Positions 8,151 to 44,081 are shown, counted from the first letter of the stretch. The stretch: DNA of 64,000 nt from Escherichia coli (GCF_001677475.2 NZ_CP015229.1), one strand, 5' to 3'. A program made the numbers and translations. Notes: generated by a model not told the origin, from the sequence alone.

Positions 8151-8395
8151 ATAGAGCGAGGACGCTAACAGGAACAATGACTCAGGATGAGGGTCAGGAG
8201 CGCCAGGAGGCGAAGACAGAGGATTGTCAGGAAGACAAACGTCCGGAGACGTAATTAAACGGAAATGGAATCAACACGGATTGTTCCGGCTAATGGAAAA
8301 ACAGGGTGTGTTGGCGGCCTGCAAGGATTGTAAGACCCGTTAAGGGTTATGAGTCAGGAAAAAAGGCGACAGAGTAATCTGTCGCCTTTTTTCTT
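8151..8395 (+). ncRNA. csrC: CsrC small RNA (CsrA-sequestering)
   Basis: About 245 nt with many GGA-containing motifs (CAGGATGA, AGGAGCG, CAGGAGG, CAGGAAG, ACGGA...) ending in hairpin aaaaaaggcgacagagtaatctgtcgcctttttt; lies between engB and yihI. Confidence 0.9.
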
Positions 8396-10600: not shown

Positions 10601-10690
10601 GCCTGATGCGCTACGCTTATCAGGCCTACAAAACCTGTTGAAAATATTGCTTTTGTAGGCCGGATAAGGCGTTCACGCCGCATCCGGCAT
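10601..10690. repeat. REP pair (BIME) downstream of hemN
   Basis: gcctgatgcgctacgcttatcaggcctac and gtaggccggataaggcgttcacgccgcatccggcat. Confidence 0.75.
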
Positions 10691-20649: not shown

Positions 20650-20680
20650 AACGAAAACCGTATCAACCGAAGTTTCAATT

Positions 20681-21469
20681 TCAGGATACTTCTTGCTCAG
20701 CAACCACCAGTTCAACATTCTCTTCACTTAACAACTGGCAGAAAGAATTGGGAGGCGGGGCATCAGTAAAAAAAGCCCTGACATTCCGTGCATTGCCAAT
20801 TGAAACGGCAGCAGACGCGGCAAACTTCGTATGATCGGCCACTAACAATGTATTCCGCGCATGTTTAATCATCGTTCTTGCGACTAACGCTTCATTGACA
20901 TCAAATTCCAGTAGGGTGCCGTCATGTTCAATGGCACCTATACTGGTGATTAAATAATCTGCGCGGAAGCCTTCAATAAAATCCACGGCTCCTGGGCCGA
21001 TAATCCCGCCGTTATGAGCGCGTAAAGTGCCTCCCGGCACCATCACTTCAATATCCTGATTCTTATAAAGAATCTGTGCCACACGTAGGCTGTTAGTGAT
21101 AATGCGTAAATCACGACGGTTGAGTAATGCCCTGGCAACGGCTTCTACGGTTGTACCGATGGTGATAAAGACGGTACAGCGTTCGGGAAGGTAATCGGCG
21201 ACTGCCTCAGCGATCGCCCGTTTCTCGGCGGTGAGCGAAAGTTCCCGTTGCTCAAAAGCGGTATTCATGACGCTGGAGACGCGCCCGGCCCCTCCATGAT
21301 GACGGGTGATCAACCCCTGCTCACTGAGTTTTCGGATATCCCGGCGCACGGTTTGCGTTGAAACATCCAGCAGTTGTGCCAGTTCTTCAATATTCATATA
21401 ACCGCGTTCTGCGATTAGATGAACGAGTTGGTCATGGCGTGGATTACCTGTCACTTCGATGATACTCAT
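20681..21469 (-). CDS. DeoR-family transcriptional regulator (YihW/CsqR-like)
   Basis: 262 aa; N-terminal HTH (STQTVRRDIRKL) and DeoR C-terminal sugar-phosphate-binding domain; related to but not the same as K-12 YihW as I remember it. Confidence 0.85.
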   Translation of the reverse strand: MSIIEVTGNPRHDQLVHLIAERGYMNIEELAQLLDVSTQTVRRDIRKLSEQGLITRHHGGAGRVSSVMNTAFEQRELSLTAEKRAIAEAVADYLPERCTVFITIGTTVEAVARALLNRRDLRIITNSLRVAQILYKNQDIEVMVPGGTLRAHNGGIIGPGAVDFIEGFRADYLITSIGAIEHDGTLLEFDVNEALVARTMIKHARNTLLVADHTKFAASAAVSIGNARNVRAFFTDAPPPNSFCQLLSEENVELVVAEQEVS

Positions 21470-21508
21470 GAATACTCCCTTGCCCCTCCTCGGTATATGT
21501 TTACCATT

Positions 21509-22405
21509 TTACGCATAAAGTGACAAAAATGATTCGGTTTGCTCACGATTAGGAATGCCGGCCCGACCGCCAGGCTGGGTACATTTCATCGCGGCAACCG
21601 CACTGGCAAAACGAATAGCCTCTTTTGTTGGCATTTTTTCTGCCAACGCTACCGCGAGTGCGCCGTGAAAAACATCGCCTGCTCCAGTGGTATCAACCAC
21701 ATTGACAGAAAATGCCTCCTGTTGACACAAATGATCATCTTCAATCCACAACGATCCTTCAGAACCCAGCGTAACATACACTTTACCTGCTGTTTGTGTC
21801 GTTGCCTGGAACAAACCTTCTTCAGGTGACTGCAGGCCAGTCATGCGTTTCAGCCCCGGTGTTGAGAACACGGCGTGATCGGCAAGCGCGACAAGTGGAG
21901 AAATATCCTGCGGTGTCATATCGGCGTCTAAAAGCGTTGTCACCCCCGCAAGGCGCGCTAGCGAGAATGCTTTTTCAGTACCGCTATGCCAGCGAACATC
22001 GGCCAGAATCAGATCATAACGAGAGAAATCGATCGCTTCTAACCATTCGGCATCAGTACCGAGATCGGGACTTGGATAATTAACGATAATCCGTTCGCCA
22101 TGCTGATCAACGAGGATCGCTGATTGCGACGAACGGGCGTTAGGATATCGGCGGCAAAATGCGGTATTGACGCCCCAACCCTCAAGTTCTGCAAGTAAGG
22201 TATTTCCACAACTGTCATCGCCGACGCGACCGATGAAATCAACCTCCACGCCAAGCTTTGCGATTGCAACAGCGGCTGTTGCTGCCGGGCCGCCACCAAT
22301 CTCAAGATAATGATTTGCCTGATATTTCCCGCCGCCATCCGGCAGAGTGAGCAAAGAATAAATCCTGTCCTGAACTGTGATACCCACGCATGCAATTTTT
22401 GTCAT
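21509..22405 (-). CDS. PfkB-family sugar kinase (YihV-like)
   Basis: 298 aa from ATG at 22405 with AGGA RBS; PfkB signature [17 protein letters not shown]; ORF track start 22456 is a probable over-extension. Confidence 0.85.
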
Positions 22406-22577
22406 ATTTGTCTTGTCCTGTTTAATTTTGTCGTCTTTGGTCAATTTAAATGACACAAATGATCAAATTAGTGATGTGTGTCGTGTTTTTGAACATAAAT
22501 TACAAATATGCTCAAAAACAGACGAAAACGAATTTTCAATTGTCATTATTTTGTCAATGTCAGACAGGAGAGTATTC
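22406..22577. promoter_or_regulatory. AT-rich divergent promoter/operator region between the kinase and reductase genes
   Basis: 172-nt AT-rich spacer with recurring TTTGTC / GACGAAAACGA-type motifs; candidate operator for the adjacent DeoR regulator. Confidence 0.4.
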
Positions 22578-23456
22578 ATGGCAACCATTGCATTTCTCGG
22601 GCTGGGGCAGATGGGTAGCCCAATGGCTAACAATCTATTGCGAAAAGGGCATTCATTGCAGGTATTTGATGTCAATGCACAGGCCGTCGATGCGCTAGTT
22701 ACGCAGGGGGCCACTGCGGCACAAACCCCAGCGGAAGCGGCAGCAGGCGCTGAATTTATCATCACTATGCTTCCCAATGGTGACATTGTTCGACAGGTTC
22801 TGTTGGGGGAAAAAGGCGTCTGTGAGGCTGTTTCATCTGACGCGTTATTGATTGATATGTCGACTATTCATCCCTTACAGACCGATGCATTAATACGGGA
22901 GTTACAAGAAAAAGGCATCAGTATGATGGACGCCCCCGTGGGCAGAACATCCGTGAATGCGATTGATGGCACATTGCTGATTTTAGCGGGTGGCACTGAT
23001 GAGCAGATTGCGCGTGCACGCCCGATTCTCATGTGCATGGGTAATGAGCTGGTCGAGGCTGGCGGCCCAGGAATGGGGATCCGCGTGAAGCTAATTAACA
23101 ACTATATGAGCATTGCGCTTAATGCGCTGTCCTCCGAGGCCGCTGTGTTATGTGAGTCACTGGGATTAAATCTTGATGTCGCAATTAAGGTGATGAGTGG
23201 TACGGCAGCAGGGAAAGGACATTTTACGACCACCTGGCCTGGCAAAGTGCTGAAAGGCGATCTTTCACCCGCCTTCATGGTGGATCTGGCGTTGAAAGAT
23301 CTGCGTATTGCAGTTGACGTCGCTCGGGAGACGGGGGCACCGCTCAATATGGGGATTGCAGCAGAAAGTTATTACGCCGCAGCAAGTCAAGACGGCAAAG
23401 GGCGGCAGGACTGGAGCGCCCTGCTAAATCAGGTTCGCCAGCAGGCTGGTCTTTAA
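22578..23456 (+). CDS. NAD(P)-dependent beta-hydroxyacid dehydrogenase family reductase (YihU / GarR-like)
   Basis: 292 aa from ATG at 22578 with RBS CAGGAGAG; dinucleotide fold [13 protein letters not shown]; ORF track start 22377 overlaps the divergent gene and is rejected. Confidence 0.85.
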
Positions 23457-23480
23457 TTTTATCTATTAACAGGAGTTTCT

Positions 23481-24368
23481 ATGTCATCCCACTTCACCCC
23501 ATTTACGCTGAAAGATATCTCCCGCCCAGGTGGTGGATTCGCCATGTTAGCTGTCGATCAGCGTGAGGCCATGCGCCTGATGTTTGCGGCAGCAGGGCAG
23601 CCCAAACCCATCGCCGACAGTGTACTCACCGATTTTAAAGTTGCCGCGACCCGAATCCTTTCTCCTTATGCTTCTGCCGTTCTGGCGGATAAACAATTTT
23701 GTCTTGAGCAAATAGTCGAGCAGGGCGCTGTTGCTAATTCTTGCGGCCTGATTGTCGCTGCCGATCTTTTTATCCCAGGTAATGGCATCCCGGTTGATAG
23801 CGTTGAAATAGATATGTCCGTCGACCCGCATAAAGCCCGTGAAATGGGGGCTAAGGCAATGAAATTACTTGTACTCTGGCGTGAAGATGAACCCGCAGAG
23901 GAACGTCTGGCAATGGTTGATAAATTTGTTCGTCGCTGCCGTAGTGCCGGACTGGTTAGCATTATTGAACCTGTGGTGCGTCCACCTCGTCGCGGTTGGG
24001 ACTTTGATCGTGAAAGCGCCATTGCCGCGGCCGCCGCAGAGCTTGGTGGAACAGAGGCTGATCTTTACAAAGCCGAGATGCCATTAGGGGGCAAAGGCGA
24101 TGAAAAAACCTTACTTGCCGCCTGTCAGCAACTTAACGATCAGATGAAGATGCCGTGGGTAATTCTTTCTTCTGGCGTTGATGCCGATATTTTTGGCCGT
24201 GCAGTAAGTATTGCCATGAAAGGTGGGGCGTCGGGCTTCCTGGCTGGACGAGCGGTTTGGGCGTCGGTTGTTGGTGCACAAGATCCACAAACTATGCTGC
24301 GCGATGTCTCCGTTCCACGCTTGCAACGGCTGGCTGAAATTGTCGATGAAGGTATCGCGCAACGCTAA
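23481..24368 (+). CDS. Class I aldolase family protein (YihT / sulfofructosephosphate-aldolase-like)
   Basis: 295 aa; shares blocks [45 protein letters not shown] with K-12 YihT as I remember it. Confidence 0.85.
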
Positions 24369-24400
24369 TCCCCTATGGATATCGATTCTGGAGAATAACA

Positions 24401-25411
24401 ATGGATAAAAGTACCCAGGTTTTATTTTCAGATATTGGGAAAGTCACCACTCAATATGTTGAAGTACCACACCAGGAACTTAAACCGCACGAAGTGCGGA
24501 TTGCGCCTGTGTTCTATGGGATATGCGGTTCGGATCTGCATGTTCTGAAAGGCGGTCATCCGTTTGCCAAACCACCTGTCGTCCCCGGTCATGAAATTGC
24601 AGCGCGCGTTGCGGAAGTTGGCAGCGACGTTAAAAATGTACAGCCGGGCGATCATGTTGTGGTCGATCCCATCATGGCTTGCATGGAATGCCGAGCCTGC
24701 AAAGCAGGACGTTTTAATCTTTGTGAACCACCGCAGGTTGCTGGTTTTCGCGCACCGGGCTTTGCTCGCTCACAACACATTGTTCCTGCGCGTAATTGCC
24801 ATGTCGCACCAGCCTCTTTACCGCTAAAAGTGTTAGCCTTTGCCGAACCGGCGGCTTGTGCTCGTCACTGCGTTAACCGAATGCCGAAAGCTTCTCTGGA
24901 AAGCGTACTGGTGATTGGTGCCGGAACGATAGGCTTATCCATCGTGCAGGCACTGCGCATTATGGGGGCAGGTAAGATTACCGTGATTGAACCTGACGCT
25001 GCCAAACGCGCGCTGGCGTTAAAGCTGGGCGCAGCAGAAGTTTGGGCACCAGGTGAGCTGGCCGCAGATGTGCGATTTACGGGGGCGATTGATGTCGTTG
25101 CAGCGCAGGCCACGCTTAACGATGCATGTACCCGTGTATATGCCGGAGGCACCGTCGTGTGCATGGGCGTACCAAGTGGGCCGCGTGAAATACCATTACC
25201 TATGATGCAACGTTTCGAGCGTGACTTGCTCAACTCTGGCATGTACATCCCTGAAGATTTCGATGCTGTTATCGAATGGCTGGCGGATGGGCGGTTTGAT
25301 ACCAGTGAACTGGTTACCGATTTATTTGCCATTGAGGATGCAGCGGCGGCATTCGAACGCGCGCAGCAAAATGACTCCATAAAGGTCATGCTGCAATTTG
25401 CGCCGGAATGA
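24401..25411 (+). CDS. Zn-dependent medium-chain dehydrogenase (polyol / sorbitol-dehydrogenase-like)
   Basis: 336 aa; catalytic-Zn Cys (GICGSDLHV), GHE motif (PGHEIAARV), structural-Zn C-x2-C-x2-C-x7-C (CMECRACKAGRFNLC), NAD site GAGTIGL. Confidence 0.85.
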   Translation: MDKSTQVLFSDIGKVTTQYVEVPHQELKPHEVRIAPVFYGICGSDLHVLKGGHPFAKPPVVPGHEIAARVAEVGSDVKNVQPGDHVVVDPIMACMECRACKAGRFNLCEPPQVAGFRAPGFARSQHIVPARNCHVAPASLPLKVLAFAEPAACARHCVNRMPKASLESVLVIGAGTIGLSIVQALRIMGAGKITVIEPDAAKRALALKLGAAEVWAPGELAADVRFTGAIDVVAAQATLNDACTRVYAGGTVVCMGVPSGPREIPLPMMQRFERDLLNSGMYIPEDFDAVIEWLADGRFDTSELVTDLFAIEDAAAAFERAQQNDSIKVMLQFAPE

Positions 25412-25480
25412 TTTTCTAAATCTCTGTCTGGCGCTGCGTCACGTCAGCGCCACCCTACAACAATTAAAAAGGACACTGCG

Positions 25481-26914
25481 ATGAGTCAAATCACCAGTCC
25501 TGCAACTTATTCAATTAGTCGGCCACAGGACGTAATTGATATTGTTAATAAGAACTCTGCAATCAACACCAGTATCGGCGTTATTTTTATTGCTTTGGGC
25601 GGCATATTGATTGATGCCTACCAGGCGGCGATGGTGGGGTTTGGTAATAAATACATTGCCGCTCAATTCGGCATTTCGCCGGGTCTTGCTGCAACCGTCA
25701 ATGCATCAGTATTAATCGCCGCGTTAATTGGCGGTTTATTAGCGAACCGAGTAATAAACCGCTTTGGGCAAAAGCGGGCATTTATTATTGGCATGGGGCT
25801 GTGCACCATCGGTGCTGCAGCGGTAGCTATTGCTCCCAGTATCTGGTGGGTGCTGGTGTGCCGCGTCATCATGGGCTTTGGTTTAGGCATCGACTTCCCT
25901 TTGGCAACCAATGCCGTGGCAGAGCTTCGTGGTTCAACGTCGAAGAAAACCGGAACGTCGGTCAACCTCTGGCAAATGGCCTGGTATGTTTCGACAACCG
26001 TTGTTTATTTGGTGCTTTTGCCGCTGCTTCTGTCGGGTATCGCTGAAGAACAATTGTGGCGTTACGGAATATTCATCGGAGCTATTTTTGCAGTCATCTT
26101 CATGATTTTGCGTTACTTCTTTATTGGTGAATCCGCAATGTGGGCTGCACGCGTCGGGCGTTACCAGGAAGCGTGCGACATTCTGGGAAAACGTTATGGT
26201 GTTCAGGCTCGCGTTGCGGCATCGGGTACAACAGAAGCGAAATTCTCGGAAAAAGCAGAGAATAAATACAGTGGTGGATATGGCATCTTATTTAATGATC
26301 GTTACCGCAAACGCACCATTCTTGGTTGTGTCGTGGCAACCATGCAGGCGTGGCAATATAACGCCGTAGGTGTTTATCTTCCTCTTACGTTGGCGGGAAT
26401 AATAAGTGGCGGGCTTACTGGCGCGTTGACCGGTTCTGCCGTCGTGAATGCCCTTTGTGGGGTGACAGGTGGGATGATCGGCTCGTTTATTCTCCAACGA
26501 CTGGGTACTCGCCGACAGTCGATGTATGGATTTGCTGTTGTGACCTTAGCATTGCTGTCGTTAGGCGCACTGGCAACGACTAATCCCTGGCTGTCTTTAG
26601 GGTTATTGGGATCAATTATTTTCTTCCATTCAGCGGGTCCTGGTGGGCTGGGCATGACCATTGCCACACTCTCTTATCCTCCCGCTATTCGTCCTACTGG
26701 GGTCGGATTTGCCCGCGCTATTATGCGCACAGGGGCAATTGCAGGACTCATTTTCTGGCCGATGCTGTGGGGTACGTTGAAAACTGAAGCGTTTTATTGG
26801 TTGGCAATTGTGCCATTCCTGGGGTTCCTGACCTGCGTATTGATTAATTGGGAACCTTTGGGAGCAAATGTTGATGCTGAGGATGCAGAGGTTCTGGCTG
26901 AATTGAAGAAATAA
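25481..26914 (+). CDS. MFS transporter (sugar / metabolite:H+ symporter-like)
   Basis: 477 aa; 12 predicted TM segments; MFS motif-A-like NRFGQKRA. Confidence 0.85.
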   Translation: MSQITSPATYSISRPQDVIDIVNKNSAINTSIGVIFIALGGILIDAYQAAMVGFGNKYIAAQFGISPGLAATVNASVLIAALIGGLLANRVINRFGQKRAFIIGMGLCTIGAAAVAIAPSIWWVLVCRVIMGFGLGIDFPLATNAVAELRGSTSKKTGTSVNLWQMAWYVSTTVVYLVLLPLLLSGIAEEQLWRYGIFIGAIFAVIFMILRYFFIGESAMWAARVGRYQEACDILGKRYGVQARVAASGTTEAKFSEKAENKYSGGYGILFNDRYRKRTILGCVVATMQAWQYNAVGVYLPLTLAGIISGGLTGALTGSAVVNALCGVTGGMIGSFILQRLGTRRQSMYGFAVVTLALLSLGALATTNPWLSLGLLGSIIFFHSAGPGGLGMTIATLSYPPAIRPTGVGFARAIMRTGAIAGLIFWPMLWGTLKTEAFYWLAIVPFLGFLTCVLINWEPLGANVDAEDAEVLAELKK

Positions 26915-26951
26915 ATTAATGCGCATCGGCTTAAACCGATGCGCATTAATT
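26915..26951. other. Perfect 15-bp inverted repeat between the two transporter genes
   Basis: aattaatgcgcatcgg cttaaa ccgatgcgcattaatt; no following T-run. Confidence 0.6.
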
Positions 26952-27012
26952 CAAACTGCCCACGTTTAGTGGTTCGTATCCCAGATTTCTCGCCTACCAG
27001 GAGAGGAAAATT

Positions 27013-28362
27013 ATGTCTGAAAAGTTACCCGCACCGCGTGAAGGGCTTTCCGGTAAAGCCATGAGACGTGTCGTTATGGGCAGTTTCGCAGGCGCGTTAA
27101 TGGAATGGTATGACTTCTTTATTTTTGGCACGGCAGCAGGACTGGTATTTGCACCGCTGTTTTATCCAGACAGCGATCCTTTTATAGGTCTTATAGCTTC
27201 CTTTGCGACCTTTGGTGTCGGTTTTCTGACTCGTCCTTTAGGTGGCATCGTCTTTGGTCATTTTGGCGATAAAATCGGGCGAAAAATAACACTTATCTGG
27301 ACGCTGGCTATTGTCGGTTGCTCCACATTTTTGATTGGTTTTATTCCGACGTATCAGGAAATTGGCATTTGGGCACCGCTTGTATTAATGGTGCTGCGTT
27401 TGATTCAGGGCTTTGGTCTTGGTGGCGAGTACGGCGGAGCGGCATTGATGACCATAGAATCAGCGCCCGAATCCCGACGCGGATTTTTAGGTTCACTCCC
27501 GCAAACGGCTGCGTCTGTGGGTATTATGCTGGCAACCGGTATTTTTGCTCTCTGTAACCATTTTCTTACTTCGGAGCAGTTTCTCTCCTGGGGATGGCGC
27601 ATTCCGTTTTGGCTTTCTGCGGTGATGTTGATCGTTGGGCTGTTTATCCGCCTGCATACCGAAGAAACGCTGGATTTTCAAAAGCAAAAAACGACGAATA
27701 ATAAAGAAAAGTCCGTTCCTCCGTTGATTGAATTATTCAAAAAACATCCACGAAATATTTTATTGGCACTGGGTGCGAGGCTGGCGGAAAGTGTCTCCTC
27801 TAATATTATTAACGCCTTTGGTATTGTCTATATTTCCAGCCAATTAGCATTGTCGCGAGATATTCCCCTGACGGGTATGTTGATTGCCTCGGCGATCGGT
27901 ATTTTCAGTTGTCCATTGGTTGGATGGTTATCAGATCGTATAGGTCAAAAAAGTCTGTATTTGTCGGGAGCAGGATTTTGTGTCCTGTTCGCGTTTCCTT
28001 TCTTCTTATTACTGGATAGCAAAAGTACGCTCATCATCTGGTGCAGTATGATCCTCGGCTACAACTTAGGTCCGACGATGATGTTTGCCGTGCAGCCAAC
28101 ACTTTTCACCCGCATGTTCGGTACCAAAGTACGATATACCGGCCTTTCTTTTGCTTATCAATTTTCCGCGATTCTTGGCGGACTAAGCCCCCTTATCGCC
28201 TCAAGTTTGCTGGCGCTAGGGGGAGGAAAACCGTGGTATGTCGCTCTGTTTTTATTTGCTGTCTCAGTTCTTTCCTTTGTTTGCGTCTGGCTGATTGAGC
28301 CGACCGATGAACAAGAAACCGCTTCTTACCGCTACATCAGGGAACAATCTCATGAAAACTGA
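27013..28362 (+). CDS. MFS transporter, metabolite:H+ symporter (MHS) family
   Basis: 449 aa; MHS-type motifs GHFGDKIGRK and GGEYGGAALM. Confidence 0.85.
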   Translation: MSEKLPAPREGLSGKAMRRVVMGSFAGALMEWYDFFIFGTAAGLVFAPLFYPDSDPFIGLIASFATFGVGFLTRPLGGIVFGHFGDKIGRKITLIWTLAIVGCSTFLIGFIPTYQEIGIWAPLVLMVLRLIQGFGLGGEYGGAALMTIESAPESRRGFLGSLPQTAASVGIMLATGIFALCNHFLTSEQFLSWGWRIPFWLSAVMLIVGLFIRLHTEETLDFQKQKTTNNKEKSVPPLIELFKKHPRNILLALGARLAESVSSNIINAFGIVYISSQLALSRDIPLTGMLIASAIGIFSCPLVGWLSDRIGQKSLYLSGAGFCVLFAFPFFLLLDSKSTLIIWCSMILGYNLGPTMMFAVQPTLFTRMFGTKVRYTGLSFAYQFSAILGGLSPLIASSLLALGGGKPWYVALFLFAVSVLSFVCVWLIEPTDEQETASYRYIREQSHEN

Positions 28363-29239
28363 ACGAAAAAACGAGCATTACCTGGCGCTACAACAGGCGT
28401 TTGACGCGCCATGGCCTGGGCCTGTAGGAGAGTTAGTGACGCTGGAAAAAGGCAATATTCACCTGCAGATTTATCCGCATGATGGTGCCAGGATAACCTC
28501 GTTAAAGGCATTTGGTTCTGAAGTATTACGCCAATGGCAGCCGCAGCGCAGAGCTTTTCAGTATGGCTGTTTCCCAATGGTGCCGTGGGCAGGGCGACTG
28601 GGGAATGCGACGCTGAATGCTGGTGGGCAATGTTATTCTTTACCCGCCAATAAACCACCACATGCGTTGCATGGTATGGCTTGTTACTCAACGTGGGAAA
28701 TCATCGACAAAACAATAGATTCCCTGACTTTACGTATGCCCCTGGCTTCACCGTGGCCCTGGCAAGGGGAAGTGATTCAGACTTTTTTGCTGGAGAACGA
28801 TGCGCTGGTTTTGCAACTGGAAATCCATTCACATACCGATACATTCCCGGCCTCTGCAGGCTGGCATCCGTGGTTTGCGAAAAAGCTGACTCCGCAAAAT
28901 ACAGAATCGTTGCAGGTGCTTTTTGATGCGGACTGGCAAGAGGAAGCGGGTAGTGATGAACTGCCAACTGGAAATCGCATCTCTCCTCAAGCTGGTCCCT
29001 GGGATGACTGTTTTGGTTTTTATGACGGGGTGAAGGTTAAGTTACTGTGGCCTGGTAAACTCACGATGACCATGACCTCTTCTGCAAACAGTCTGGTGGT
29101 ATTTGATAAACAGCCCGATGCCACCTGTGTTAATCCGCTTACTCAGGCACCTAACGCAATAAATCTAACGCCGGAATTGGTGACATCAGATAAGCCGCTG
29201 GTCATCGAAACTCGTTGGCAATTTACACCTGAATCTTAA
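28352..29239 (+). CDS. Aldose 1-epimerase (mutarotase) family protein (YihR-like)
   Basis: 295 aa from ATG at 28352 (MKTERKNEHY...) with RBS AGGGA; overlaps the upstream transporter by 11 nt; the 28295 TTG start is less likely. Confidence 0.8.
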   Translation: MKTERKNEHYLALQQAFDAPWPGPVGELVTLEKGNIHLQIYPHDGARITSLKAFGSEVLRQWQPQRRAFQYGCFPMVPWAGRLGNATLNAGGQCYSLPANKPPHALHGMACYSTWEIIDKTIDSLTLRMPLASPWPWQGEVIQTFLLENDALVLQLEIHSHTDTFPASAGWHPWFAKKLTPQNTESLQVLFDADWQEEAGSDELPTGNRISPQAGPWDDCFGFYDGVKVKLLWPGKLTMTMTSSANSLVVFDKQPDATCVNPLTQAPNAINLTPELVTSDKPLVIETRWQFTPES

Positions 29240-29249
29240 CCATTCATCT

Positions 29250-29290
29250 ATTGCGAAAAAGCCAGTGAAATTACTCTGCTTTTTCGCAAT
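29250..29290 (+). terminator. Strong hairpin downstream of the epimerase gene
   Basis: attgcgaaaaagc cagtgaaattactct gctttttcgcaat (13-bp perfect stem); no clean T-run. Confidence 0.5.
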
Positions 29291-29379
29291 CAGCATCACA
29301 AGATTACCCTTATTGCCACATAGCCAAACCCATCCTTTCCCGCTACAGTTAATTTCTTGTGGCGCGAAAGGAGGCAAAA

Positions 29380-29979
29380 ATGCTCTATATCTTTGATTTA
29401 GGTAATGTGATTGTCGATATCGACTTTAACCGTGTGCTGGGAGCCTGGAGCGATTTAACGCGTATTCCGCTGGCATCTCTTAAGAAGAGTTTTCATATGG
29501 GGGAGGCGTTTCATCAGCATGAGCGTGGGGAAATTAGCGACGAAGCGTTCGCAGAGGCGCTGTGTCATGAGATGGCTCTACCGCTAAGCTACGAGCAGTT
29601 CTCCCACGGTTGGCAGGCAGTGTTTGTCGCGCTGCGCCCGGAAGTGATCGCCATCATGCATAAACTGCGTGAGCAGGGGCATCGCGTGGTGGTGCTTTCC
29701 AATACCAACCGCCTGCATACCACCTTCTGGCCGGAAGAATACCCGGAAATTCGTGATGCTGCTGACCATATCTATCTGTCGCAAGATCTGGGGATGCGCA
29801 AACCTGAAGCACGAATTTACCAGCATGTTTTGCAGGCGGAAGGTTTTTCACCCAGCGATACGGTCTTTTTCGACGATAACGCCGATAATATAGAAGGAGC
29901 CAATCAGCTGGGCATTACCAGCATTCTGGTGAAAGATAAAACCACCATCCCGGACTATTTCGCGAAGGTGTTATGCTAA
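29380..29979 (+). CDS. yihX: HAD-family alpha-D-glucose-1-phosphate phosphatase YihX
   Basis: 199 aa from ATG at 29380 with RBS AAAGGAGG; HAD motif I FDLGNV. Confidence 0.9.
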
Positions 29980-30845
29980 AAACCATTCAGGACAAAGCCA
30001 GGCACCGTACCCGTCCACTATGGGCCTGGCTAAAACTACTCTGGCAACGCATTGATGAGGACAACATGACAACCCTGGCAGGTAACCTTGCCTATGTGTC
30101 GTTGCTCTCATTAGTGCCGCTGGTTGCCGTTGTTTTTGCGCTTTTCGCCGCTTTTCCCATGTTTTCCGACGTCAGCATTCAGTTGCGTCACTTTATTTTT
30201 GCCAACTTTCTGCCTGCTACTGGCGATGTTATTCAGCGGTATATCGAACAATTTGTTGCCAATTCCAACAAGATGACCGCCGTTGGCGCGTGCGGGCTGA
30301 TCGTCACAGCGCTATTGTTGATGTACTCCATCGATAGCGCGTTGAATACCATCTGGCGCAGTAAACGAGCGCGACCAAAAATTTACTCGTTTGCCGTGTA
30401 CTGGATGATTTTAACGCTGGGGCCGCTGCTGGCAGGGGCCAGTCTGGCGATCAGTTCCTATTTGCTCTCCCTGCGCTGGGCGAGCGATCTCAATACTGTC
30501 ATCGACAACGTGCTGCGTATTTTTCCGTTGCTGTTGTCGTGGATCTCCTTCTGGTTGCTGTACAGCATTGTTCCTACCATCCGCGTACCTAACCGCGACG
30601 CGATTGTCGGCGCGTTTGTCGCCGCGCTCCTGTTCGAAGCAGGAAAGAAAGGTTTCGCGCTTTATATCACCATGTTCCCGTCATATCAGCTCATTTACGG
30701 TGTGCTGGCGGTGATCCCCATTCTCTTCGTCTGGGTCTACTGGACATGGTGTATCGTCTTGCTTGGCGCGGAAATTACTGTCACTCTCGGGGAATACCGC
30801 AAACTAAAACAAGCTGCTGAACAAGAAGAAGACGACGAACCATGA
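29973..30845 (+). CDS. yihY: BrkB/YihY-family inner-membrane protein
   Basis: 290 aa; multiple TM segments; overlaps yihX stop. Confidence 0.9.
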
Positions 30846-31279
30846 TTGCATTAATTCAACGCGTAACCCGTGCCAGCGTCACCGTGGAGGGAGAAGTGAC
30901 GGGCGAAATTGGCGCGGGACTTTTGGTGTTATTGGGTGTCGAAAAGGATGACGACGAACAGAAAGCAAACCGTCTGTGCGAGCGTGTGCTCGGCTACCGC
31001 ATCTTTAGCGATGCCGAAGGCAAGATGAATCTCAACGTGCAACAGGCGGGCGGCAGTGTACTGGTGGTTTCCCAGTTTACCCTCGCCGCAGATACCGAAC
31101 GGGGGATGCGCCCAAGTTTCTCCAAAGGCGCATCACCGGATCGCGCAGAGGCGTTATATGACTATTTCGTCGAACGCTGCCGCCAGCAAGAGATGAACAC
31201 GCAAACAGGACGCTTCGCTGCCGATATGCAAGTATCGCTGGTCAATGATGGCCCCGTGACATTCTGGTTGCAGGTATGA
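30842..31279 (+). CDS. dtd: D-aminoacyl-tRNA deacylase
   Basis: 145 aa; matches Dtd; ATGA overlap with yihY. Confidence 0.95.
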
Positions 31280-44018: not shown

Positions 44019-44046
44019 ACGTTTTTGTTTTTGCTGTGAAATACAA

Positions 44047-44081
44047 GGTCGGATGTGGCGTAAACGCCTTATCCGACCTAC
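44047..44081. repeat. REP element
   Basis: ggtcggatgtggcgtaaacgccttatccgacctac. Confidence 0.75.

Follow-up and report, generated by a model that had tools for sequence, protein, structure and literature searches.

Where operon segments of E. coli decay at different rates, protective 3′ hairpins are common at their boundaries, and they are conserved (PMC5927463). The structures described by Dar and Sorek (2018, PMC5927463) are stable, have no U-tract and are conserved in related species; they are mostly located inside coding sequence, and in menBCE two such hairpins occur in one operon. Two older examples, in the form in which PMC5927463 cites them, are the hairpins between malE and malF (Newbury, Smith and Higgins, 1987), which belong to the multi-copy REP family, and the puf stem-loop of Rhodobacter capsulatus (Chen, Beatty, Cohen and Belasco, 1988). 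The latter is a unique, non-repetitive intercistronic hairpin, called an 'mRNA decay terminator', that was proposed to stop 3′-to-5′ decay and to set the ratio of the products. In processing of the papBA type, as far as it is outlined in PMC5927463, the segment downstream of an RNase E cut is protected by a hairpin at its 5′ end. A GC-rich stem-loop right after a stop codon is likewise found in intrinsic terminators and attenuators.

The palindrome described here, located in E. coli DNA, is a stem-loop in the sense polycistronic mRNA yihU-yihT-adh-MFS-MHS-epimerase, directly after the stop codon of the MFS gene. With the malEF hairpins and the cases in PMC5927463 it shares the position just after the upstream cistron of a sugar-utilisation or transport operon, and with protective hairpins in general the prediction of an unequal mRNA stoichiometry from one promoter. 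Like the structures of Dar and Sorek, it is stable, free of a U-tract and conserved in related species, and as in menBCE a second such hairpin is present in the operon. It differs from the malEF element, as cited above, in being single-copy and unrelated in sequence, and from most of the structures of Dar and Sorek in being intergenic and known from sequence alone. The likeness to puf, as given in the citing paper, lies in the unique intercistronic hairpin; organism and operon are others, and the function shown experimentally there is inferred here. As in the outline of papBA, an RN|WUU-like AG|AUU lies immediately 5′ of a conserved helix (26986-27008), but the helix here sequesters a Shine-Dalgarno (SD) sequence and is weak (-8.1 kcal/mol), and cleavage is putative. 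Some Citrobacter homologues have the U-rich tails of intrinsic terminators, whereas the Escherichia sense strand has no U-tract, its terminator score is far lower than those of real terminators in the window and a U-tract is not conserved across the orthologs.

The features of the locus are given below in coordinates of the window, i.e., the whole 64-kb stretch of DNA that was analysed.

25429..25452, + strand: sister hairpin TGGCGCTG-CGTCACGT-CAGCGCCA in the 69-nt dehydrogenase-MFS spacer
25481..26914, + strand: gene of an MFS transporter of 477 aa, sugar-porter / aromatic-acid-symporter-like (ORF, NCBIfam, RefSeq 'MFS transporter')
26914-26929, + strand: 5′ arm of the palindrome, AATTAATGCGCATCGG, whose base 1 is the final A of the MFS TAA stop codon
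26930-26935, + strand: loop CTTAAA, polymorphic among E. coli strains
26936-26951, + strand: 3′ arm of the palindrome, CCGATGCGCATTAATT, in which 26947 covaries with 26918 in Escherichia sp. MOD1
26952..26985, + strand: A/U-rich spacer, mostly unstructured (fold of -5.2 kcal/mol, not significant)
26986..27008, + strand: predicted SD-sequestering helix UUUCUCGCC x GGAGAGGAA, with the MHS SD sequence GGAGAGG at 27000-27006
27013..28362, + strand: gene of an MHS family metabolite/H+ symporter of 449 aa (ORF, NCBIfam)
28352-29239: aldose-1-epimerase gene, whose start overlaps the MHS gene by 11 nt (28352-28362)
29250-29262 / 29278-29290, + strand: second hairpin ATTGCGAAAAAGC / GCTTTTTCGCAAT with 13-bp arms and a 15-nt loop

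An earlier reading of the sequence alone (the sequence-only reading) had placed the palindrome in a gap of 98 nt between two transporter genes. Both statements hold, as the MFS stop ends at 26914 and the MHS ATG begins at 27013, and the ORFs and NCBIfam agree on the two transporter cistrons.

The genes belong to the short yih cassette, which was described for Nissle 1917 and many B2/ExPEC strains (Kaznadzey et al., 2025, PMC12608037). It is inverted relative to the sulfoquinovose cassette of K-12, was not induced by sulfoquinovose and was transcriptionally silent under the conditions of its RNA-seq study (PMC12608037). This paper, the only RNA-seq study of the cassette, neither mentions a hairpin at the MFS-MHS junction nor gives MFS and MHS expression values, and a 2026 review on sulfoquinovose does not mention the short cassette. 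A 3-kb region matched 1342 of the 5426 complete E. coli genomes with 95-99.5% identity; the cassette is thereby present in about one quarter of them, with the palindrome once per genome. It is placed between typA/yihLMN and yihX and contains genes for a DeoR-type regulator and a PfkB kinase, both on the minus strand, followed by yihU, the aldolase, a Zn-dependent dehydrogenase, the MFS and MHS transporters and the aldose-1-epimerase. What was published as a truncated yihTUVW cassette is a conserved cluster of eight genes (20681-29239). The dehydrogenase occupies the place of the K-12 isomerase YihS, which suggests that the substrate of the short cassette differs from that of the K-12 cassette.

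Inspection of the sequence, which reads TAA-ATTAATGCGCATCGG-CTTAAA-CCGATGCGCATTAATT at the locus, revealed perfect arms of 16 bp (26914-26929 / 26936-26951) around the loop CTTAAA. The palindrome had been reported with 15 bp; it is present, and the count was off by one because it had begun one base late. RNA folding of an 81-nt context, a check which had been proposed with the original observation, resulted in -30.4 kcal/mol (z = -5.3), a value equalled by none of 200 shuffles, and the hairpin folded alone reached -24 kcal/mol. It is the longest perfect stem of the window, tied with the stem at 8358-8393, and in 30 shuffles of the window that preserved dinucleotides, perfect stems reached a maximum of 9-13 bp, so that the palindrome is real and beyond chance. 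The other 16-bp perfect stem (GAAAAAAGGCGACAGA / TCTGTCGCCTTTTTTC, 8358-8393) is a textbook bidirectional intrinsic terminator, which served as positive control. On the + strand the palindrome is followed by CAAACTGCC without a T-run; the tail on the - strand is T-rich (TATTTCTTC), a feature that had gone unremarked, as had the sister hairpin before the MFS gene and the SD-sequestering helix in the MFS-MHS spacer. Each E. coli arm also contains the self-complementary octamer ATGCGCAT (26919-26926 and 26939-26946, the copies 20 bp apart), which is probably incidental because it is absent as a conserved feature in other genera.

Known families of repeats and RNAs were searched as well. A REP, BIME or MITE repeat was rejected, as only one locus per genome was detected in 1328 E. 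coli genomes (blastn, 11-base words, E<=10); the palindrome was reported at two BLAST places because it matches itself on both strands. No second copy with up to 3 mismatches was found in the window, and the REP-like hairpins of the window (10616-10668, 44046-44079) are unrelated to the palindrome. The search of 21000-31000 against Rfam 15 (E<=10) resulted in three chance-level snoRNA/IRES matches, none of them at the palindrome, for which RefSeq holds no repeat annotation either. By consensus scan, no sigma-70 promoter was detected in the MFS-MHS spacer.

Within E. coli, 3 haplotypes of the hairpin were seen, and the 14 inner pairs are invariant in all of them. In the B2 haplotype, A26915T breaks the second-outermost pair 26915-26950, and the loop is TTTAAG (C26930T, A26935G), which results in a U·G closing pair. 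In strain JNE23 the loop is CTTAAG with a C-G closing pair, so that the DNA palindrome is complete. Escherichia sp. MOD1-EC7003 differs from the window at 12-21% of the flanking third codon positions and at three palindrome positions only, namely 26915, 26918 (A>C) and 26947 (T>G). The latter two are paired with each other and represent a compensatory double change. In long DNA palindromes and quasi-palindromes, intrastrand template switching can create paired changes in one step; for this reason the double change is weaker evidence of selection rather than proof.

For the comparison beyond Escherichia, one genome per species was scanned for the MFS orthologue, which resulted in 28 loci. The eight-gene cluster is whole in Citrobacter, Mixta, Trabulsiella, Erwinia typographi, Enterobacter sp. 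10-1, Phytobacter and Edaphovirga, and also in Leminorella, Budvicia, Vibrio rhodolitus, a Succinivibrionaceae MAG and Sutterella; it is rearranged in Propionivibrio, a betaproteobacterium, and in several alphaproteobacteria. All 20 loci with an MFS-MHS spacer of >45 nt contain a stable GC-rich hairpin in the spacer, which in most cases starts <=10 nt from the MFS stop, while none is present in the 3 loci with spacers of 15-19 nt. Clusters with a hairpin occur in Enterobacterales, Vibrio, Succinivibrionaceae and Sutterella. Homology of the hairpin sequence is recognisable among the closer enterics only, in which the core GCGC...GCGC is invariant; in Leminorella, Budvicia, Edaphovirga, two Citrobacter lineages, Vibrio, Succinivibrionaceae and Sutterella the sequences are unrelated, and stem length and loop are likewise unrelated in taxa beyond the closer enterics. 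The conservation in related genomes, which had been named as a check, therefore applies to position and structure and not to sequence. In Erwinia typographi, Enterobacter sp. 10-1 and Phytobacter the hairpin nearest the stop is degenerate, with 5 bp, and a strong 11-bp hairpin, GCUGUGGGUGA-N3-UCACCCACAGU, lies about 41-65 nt after the MFS stop in the same spacer, where it is followed by UUU(U)CUC and directly precedes the SD helix. This 11-bp hairpin is terminator-like, and its tail is the anti-SD strand.

Covariation was measured on an alignment of 14 enteric sequences. Standard pairs were present in 96.6% of the cells compared to 40-60% with the 3′ partners slid by 1-3 columns, and 18 double-change cells were observed compared to 0-4 in the slid alignments. 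Changes on both sides were found in 4 of 10 pairs. The observed score for pairing or covariation was reached by none of 500 shuffles, a control which overstates the significance due to the phylogenetic relatedness of the enteric sequences; the slide control and the unrelated hairpins of the distant taxa are independent of this kinship.

To each of the 21 orthologous hairpins a strand test was applied by folding the sequence of both strands. The + strand RNA is more stable in 18 of the 21 sequences, with a mean gain of 2.7 kcal/mol and an extreme of -18.1 (+) versus -7.7 (-) kcal/mol in Mixta, and the + strand folds contain 25 G·U pairs compared to 3 in the - strand folds. A G·U pair in the sense RNA corresponds to an A·C mismatch in the antisense RNA and has no meaning for duplex DNA. 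The G·U bias and the greater stability of the + strand thus identify the mRNA hairpin as the selected object, and on these comparative data the palindrome is very probably a selected structure of the sense mRNA. A DNA operator and an antisense terminator are thereby dismissed, as is, for Escherichia, a canonical intrinsic terminator. An RNA stability or processing hairpin, one of two functions originally suggested, is still a good candidate in view of the structure kept without sequence, the covariation and the sense-only G·U pairs; the other, a binding site for a dimeric protein, is disfavoured by the unconserved arms, the covariation and the frequent strand-specific wobble pairs.

Additional elements are located in the same transcript. 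The dehydrogenase-MFS spacer is the only other long spacer of the operon, the remaining ones being too short for a hairpin. Its GC-rich sister hairpin (-15.6 kcal/mol, z = -3.5) is not followed by a U-tract, differs between E. coli and Escherichia sp. MOD1 only at the loop positions 25439 and 25442, and has counterparts with changed stems at the same position in Citrobacter, Mixta, the Erwinia typographi group, Trabulsiella and others. With hairpins in both long spacers, the MFS cistron is bracketed by hairpins. In the A/U-rich part of the MFS-MHS spacer, a weak 4-bp hairpin of CCAC (26960-26963) and GTGG (26969-26972) is unsupported by energy (z = -0.7). The enteric alignment shows CCAC..GTGG and CAGATTTCTC as conserved blocks.

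The AG|AUU at 26983-26987, directly 5′ of the SD helix, fits the RNase E motif RN|WUU (PMC5927463) and is a putative endonuclease entry site. The block UUUCUCGCC-N5-GGAGAGGAAA of the SD helix is almost invariant across the 14 enteric sequences, and its loop-closing pair covaries (U-A versus G-C). Its energy is unremarkable (z = -1.1), and it is this sequence conservation together with the one covarying pair that suggests the helix. The overlap of the MHS and epimerase genes suggests translational coupling and contrasts with the long structured spacer ahead of the MHS gene. In the alphaproteobacteria and Propionivibrio, in which a yihU-like gene splits MFS and MHS, the spacer before MHS is again long and strongly structured.

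A stable stem-loop between same-strand genes of a conserved cluster, whose sense-strand structure is conserved in relatives, is what would be expected of a barrier to mRNA decay. The most likely role of the hairpin, somewhat more probable than not, is that of a 3′-exonuclease barrier, or of a hairpin forming a 3′ end, by which the amounts of the two transporters would become independent of each other; both the nuclease steps and the consequences for expression are inferred. An endonuclease, presumably RNase E, would cut the A/U-rich spacer downstream of the hairpin, with AG|AUU (26983-26987) as the predicted site, and the 16-bp hairpin would then block 3′-to-5′ exonucleases such as PNPase and RNase II. 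The upstream segment from yihU to MFS would outlive the MHS-epimerase segment, and the SD-sequestering helix would further lower the translation of MHS. The predicted outcome is that one promoter yields the two transporters in unequal proportions.

The main rival is leaky intrinsic termination or attenuation, in which some polymerases would stop after the MFS gene at the GC core GCGCAUCGG/CCGAUGCGC followed by AUUAAUUC, which would directly lower the transcription of MHS and epimerase and leave transcripts that end with the hairpin. The stem itself would suit a terminator, with 16 bp, a 9-bp GC-rich core and -24 kcal/mol. However, no U-tract is present on the + strand, neither in the tail CAAACUGCC after the full stem nor in AUUAAUUC after the GC core. 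A score of the d'Aubenton-Carafa type (1990 formula; absolute values are rough) was -27 to -55 for the + strand and -3 to -24 for the - strand, compared to +15 to +49 for three real terminators of the same window, and the scan with a consensus pattern did not call the palindrome on the + strand and made a terminator-like call on the - strand only. The sequence-only reading had already denied that this is a typical intrinsic terminator on the coding strand, which is borne out by the U-poor tail and the negative score.

Among the 21 orthologs no U-tract is conserved, and most have 0-3 U in the first 8 tail bases. U-rich tails do occur in some Citrobacter lineages (UUUCUCAU, UUUCCUAA; also CGACGCGCUUUUUCGU, GGCGCGCUUUCUCAU), in five Citrobacter-like metagenomic contigs found via the conserved downstream block (UUUUUCGU) and after the unrelated hairpin of Vibrio (ACUUUUUCC); the E. 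coli tail AUUAAUU aligns with these tails, and the 11-bp hairpin with its U-rich tail in Erwinia typographi, Enterobacter 10-1 and Phytobacter also speaks for termination in this spacer. The stem is conserved, while the U-tract is present sporadically. In MOD1 a U of the tail is changed to G together with its partner, so that pairing is kept, which argues for selection on the pairing of the stem and not on U-richness. Taken together, leaky termination is considered unlikely as the explanation, although the hairpin may act as a leaky terminator where the tail is U-rich, and decay barrier and termination may both operate in different lineages.

An extension of the decay barrier, put forward as a rather speculative idea, treats the 98-nt spacer as a conserved composite post-transcriptional module of barrier hairpin, RNase E entry site and SD helix, which might adjust the transporter ratio actively or in response to temperature, an sRNA, a metabolite or some other cue; the long Escherichia stem would add a lineage-specific step such as RNase III cleavage. 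If this were true, the spacer would not be passive but would set the transporter ratio of a sulfosugar-like pathway.

On its own, a processing site for RNase III or another double-strand-specific enzyme, which would split the operon mRNA into independently decaying halves, is improbable. The Escherichia stem of 16-17 bp is perfect and far longer than is needed to block exonucleases, and its length is kept by compensatory change; the orthologous hairpins of other genera, however, have only 8-13 bp. RNase III prefers about two helical turns, for which 8-13 bp are too short. Such a role could at most be an Escherichia-specific addition, which could account for the additional base pairs there yet would leave the short stems of other genera unexplained.

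Very little likelihood is left for an intrinsic terminator of antisense transcription entering from the MHS gene, with UAUUUCUUC as the tail on the - strand. The terminator-like call of the consensus scan and the score above that of the + strand are in its favour, as is the U-rich - strand tail in most enterics, which is due to the stop codon, TAAT repeats and Lys/Glu codons. Against it, the score is nonetheless negative, the nearest promoter-like site on the - strand is at 27830-27803, and 18 of the 21 orthologs have the less stable hairpin on the - strand, where the sense G·U pairs become A·C mismatches. A cis-antisense sRNA ending at the minus-strand 'terminator' was also tried and rejected, since no conserved - strand promoter was detected by eye or scan and the strand test opposes it.

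It is also very unlikely that the palindrome is a relic without present function, e.g., the remains of a terminator that once served an operon with MFS as its last gene. The perfect arms and the paired change at 26918/26947 could be explained by template-switch 'correction', and the cassette was silent in the only study of it. Nevertheless, a hairpin is found at the junction in every lineage with a long spacer, over vast distances, with unrelated sequences and with sense-strand specificity, a recurrence that is hard to obtain without selection.

The least credible proposal is an operator for a dimeric DNA-binding protein, e.g., the DeoR-type YihW/CsqR, that would modulate transcription at the junction: the perfect inverted repeat, the invariant GCGC core in both arms among enterics and the 8-bp palindrome ATGCGCAT in each E. 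coli arm would suit it, but half-sites are unconserved beyond GCGC, lengths and sequences of arm and loop vary between genera, the hairpins found at this position in distant taxa are unrelated, wobble pairs occur often and typical operators fall far short of arms of 16 bp. YihW is known to bind the yihV-yihU and yihW-yihV control regions (PMC12608037), and a YihW/CsqR operator was rejected on the finding that these regions contain no similar sequence. Unrelated to the palindrome, an inverted repeat TGTTTTTGAACATA / TATGCTCAAAAACA in the control region of the divergent yihV and yihU (22484-22520) is a candidate operator for the DeoR-type regulator of the cassette.

As a selected mRNA hairpin, the element is ordinary biology, i.e., a further comparatively supported hairpin that probably sets unequal expression within an operon. 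The bracketing hairpins and the occluded MHS ribosome-binding site predict very different amounts of the two transporters, which would be a clue to importer versus exporter in the short yih cassette of Nissle 1917 and ExPEC-type E. coli. The hairpins should be allowed for when reporters or knock-outs are built in the locus.

The second perfect hairpin that had been reported at 29250..29290 after the epimerase gene, with 13 bp, was found as described (-18.7 kcal/mol, z = -6.1); judged by the length of its arms only, it is borderline, since 13 bp also turned up in 1 of 30 shuffles. The hairpin begins 10 nt past the stop of the epimerase gene, about 22 nt separate its end from the right cassette junction, and neither strand carries a U-tail. 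Conservation extends to E. coli EC958 and Escherichia sp. MOD1 but not to Citrobacter, and the hairpin is missing from the csqR-yihX spacer of K-12; in several other genera canonical terminators are located at this position. The second hairpin probably marks and protects the 3′ end of the operon transcript. The junctions of the cassette with the K-12-type flanks are located near 20670 and 29312. At the left junction, a REP-like element of K-12 is missing from the window, and the hairpin GGCCGGATGTGCTTAATCCGGCC after yihN is common to the window and K-12.
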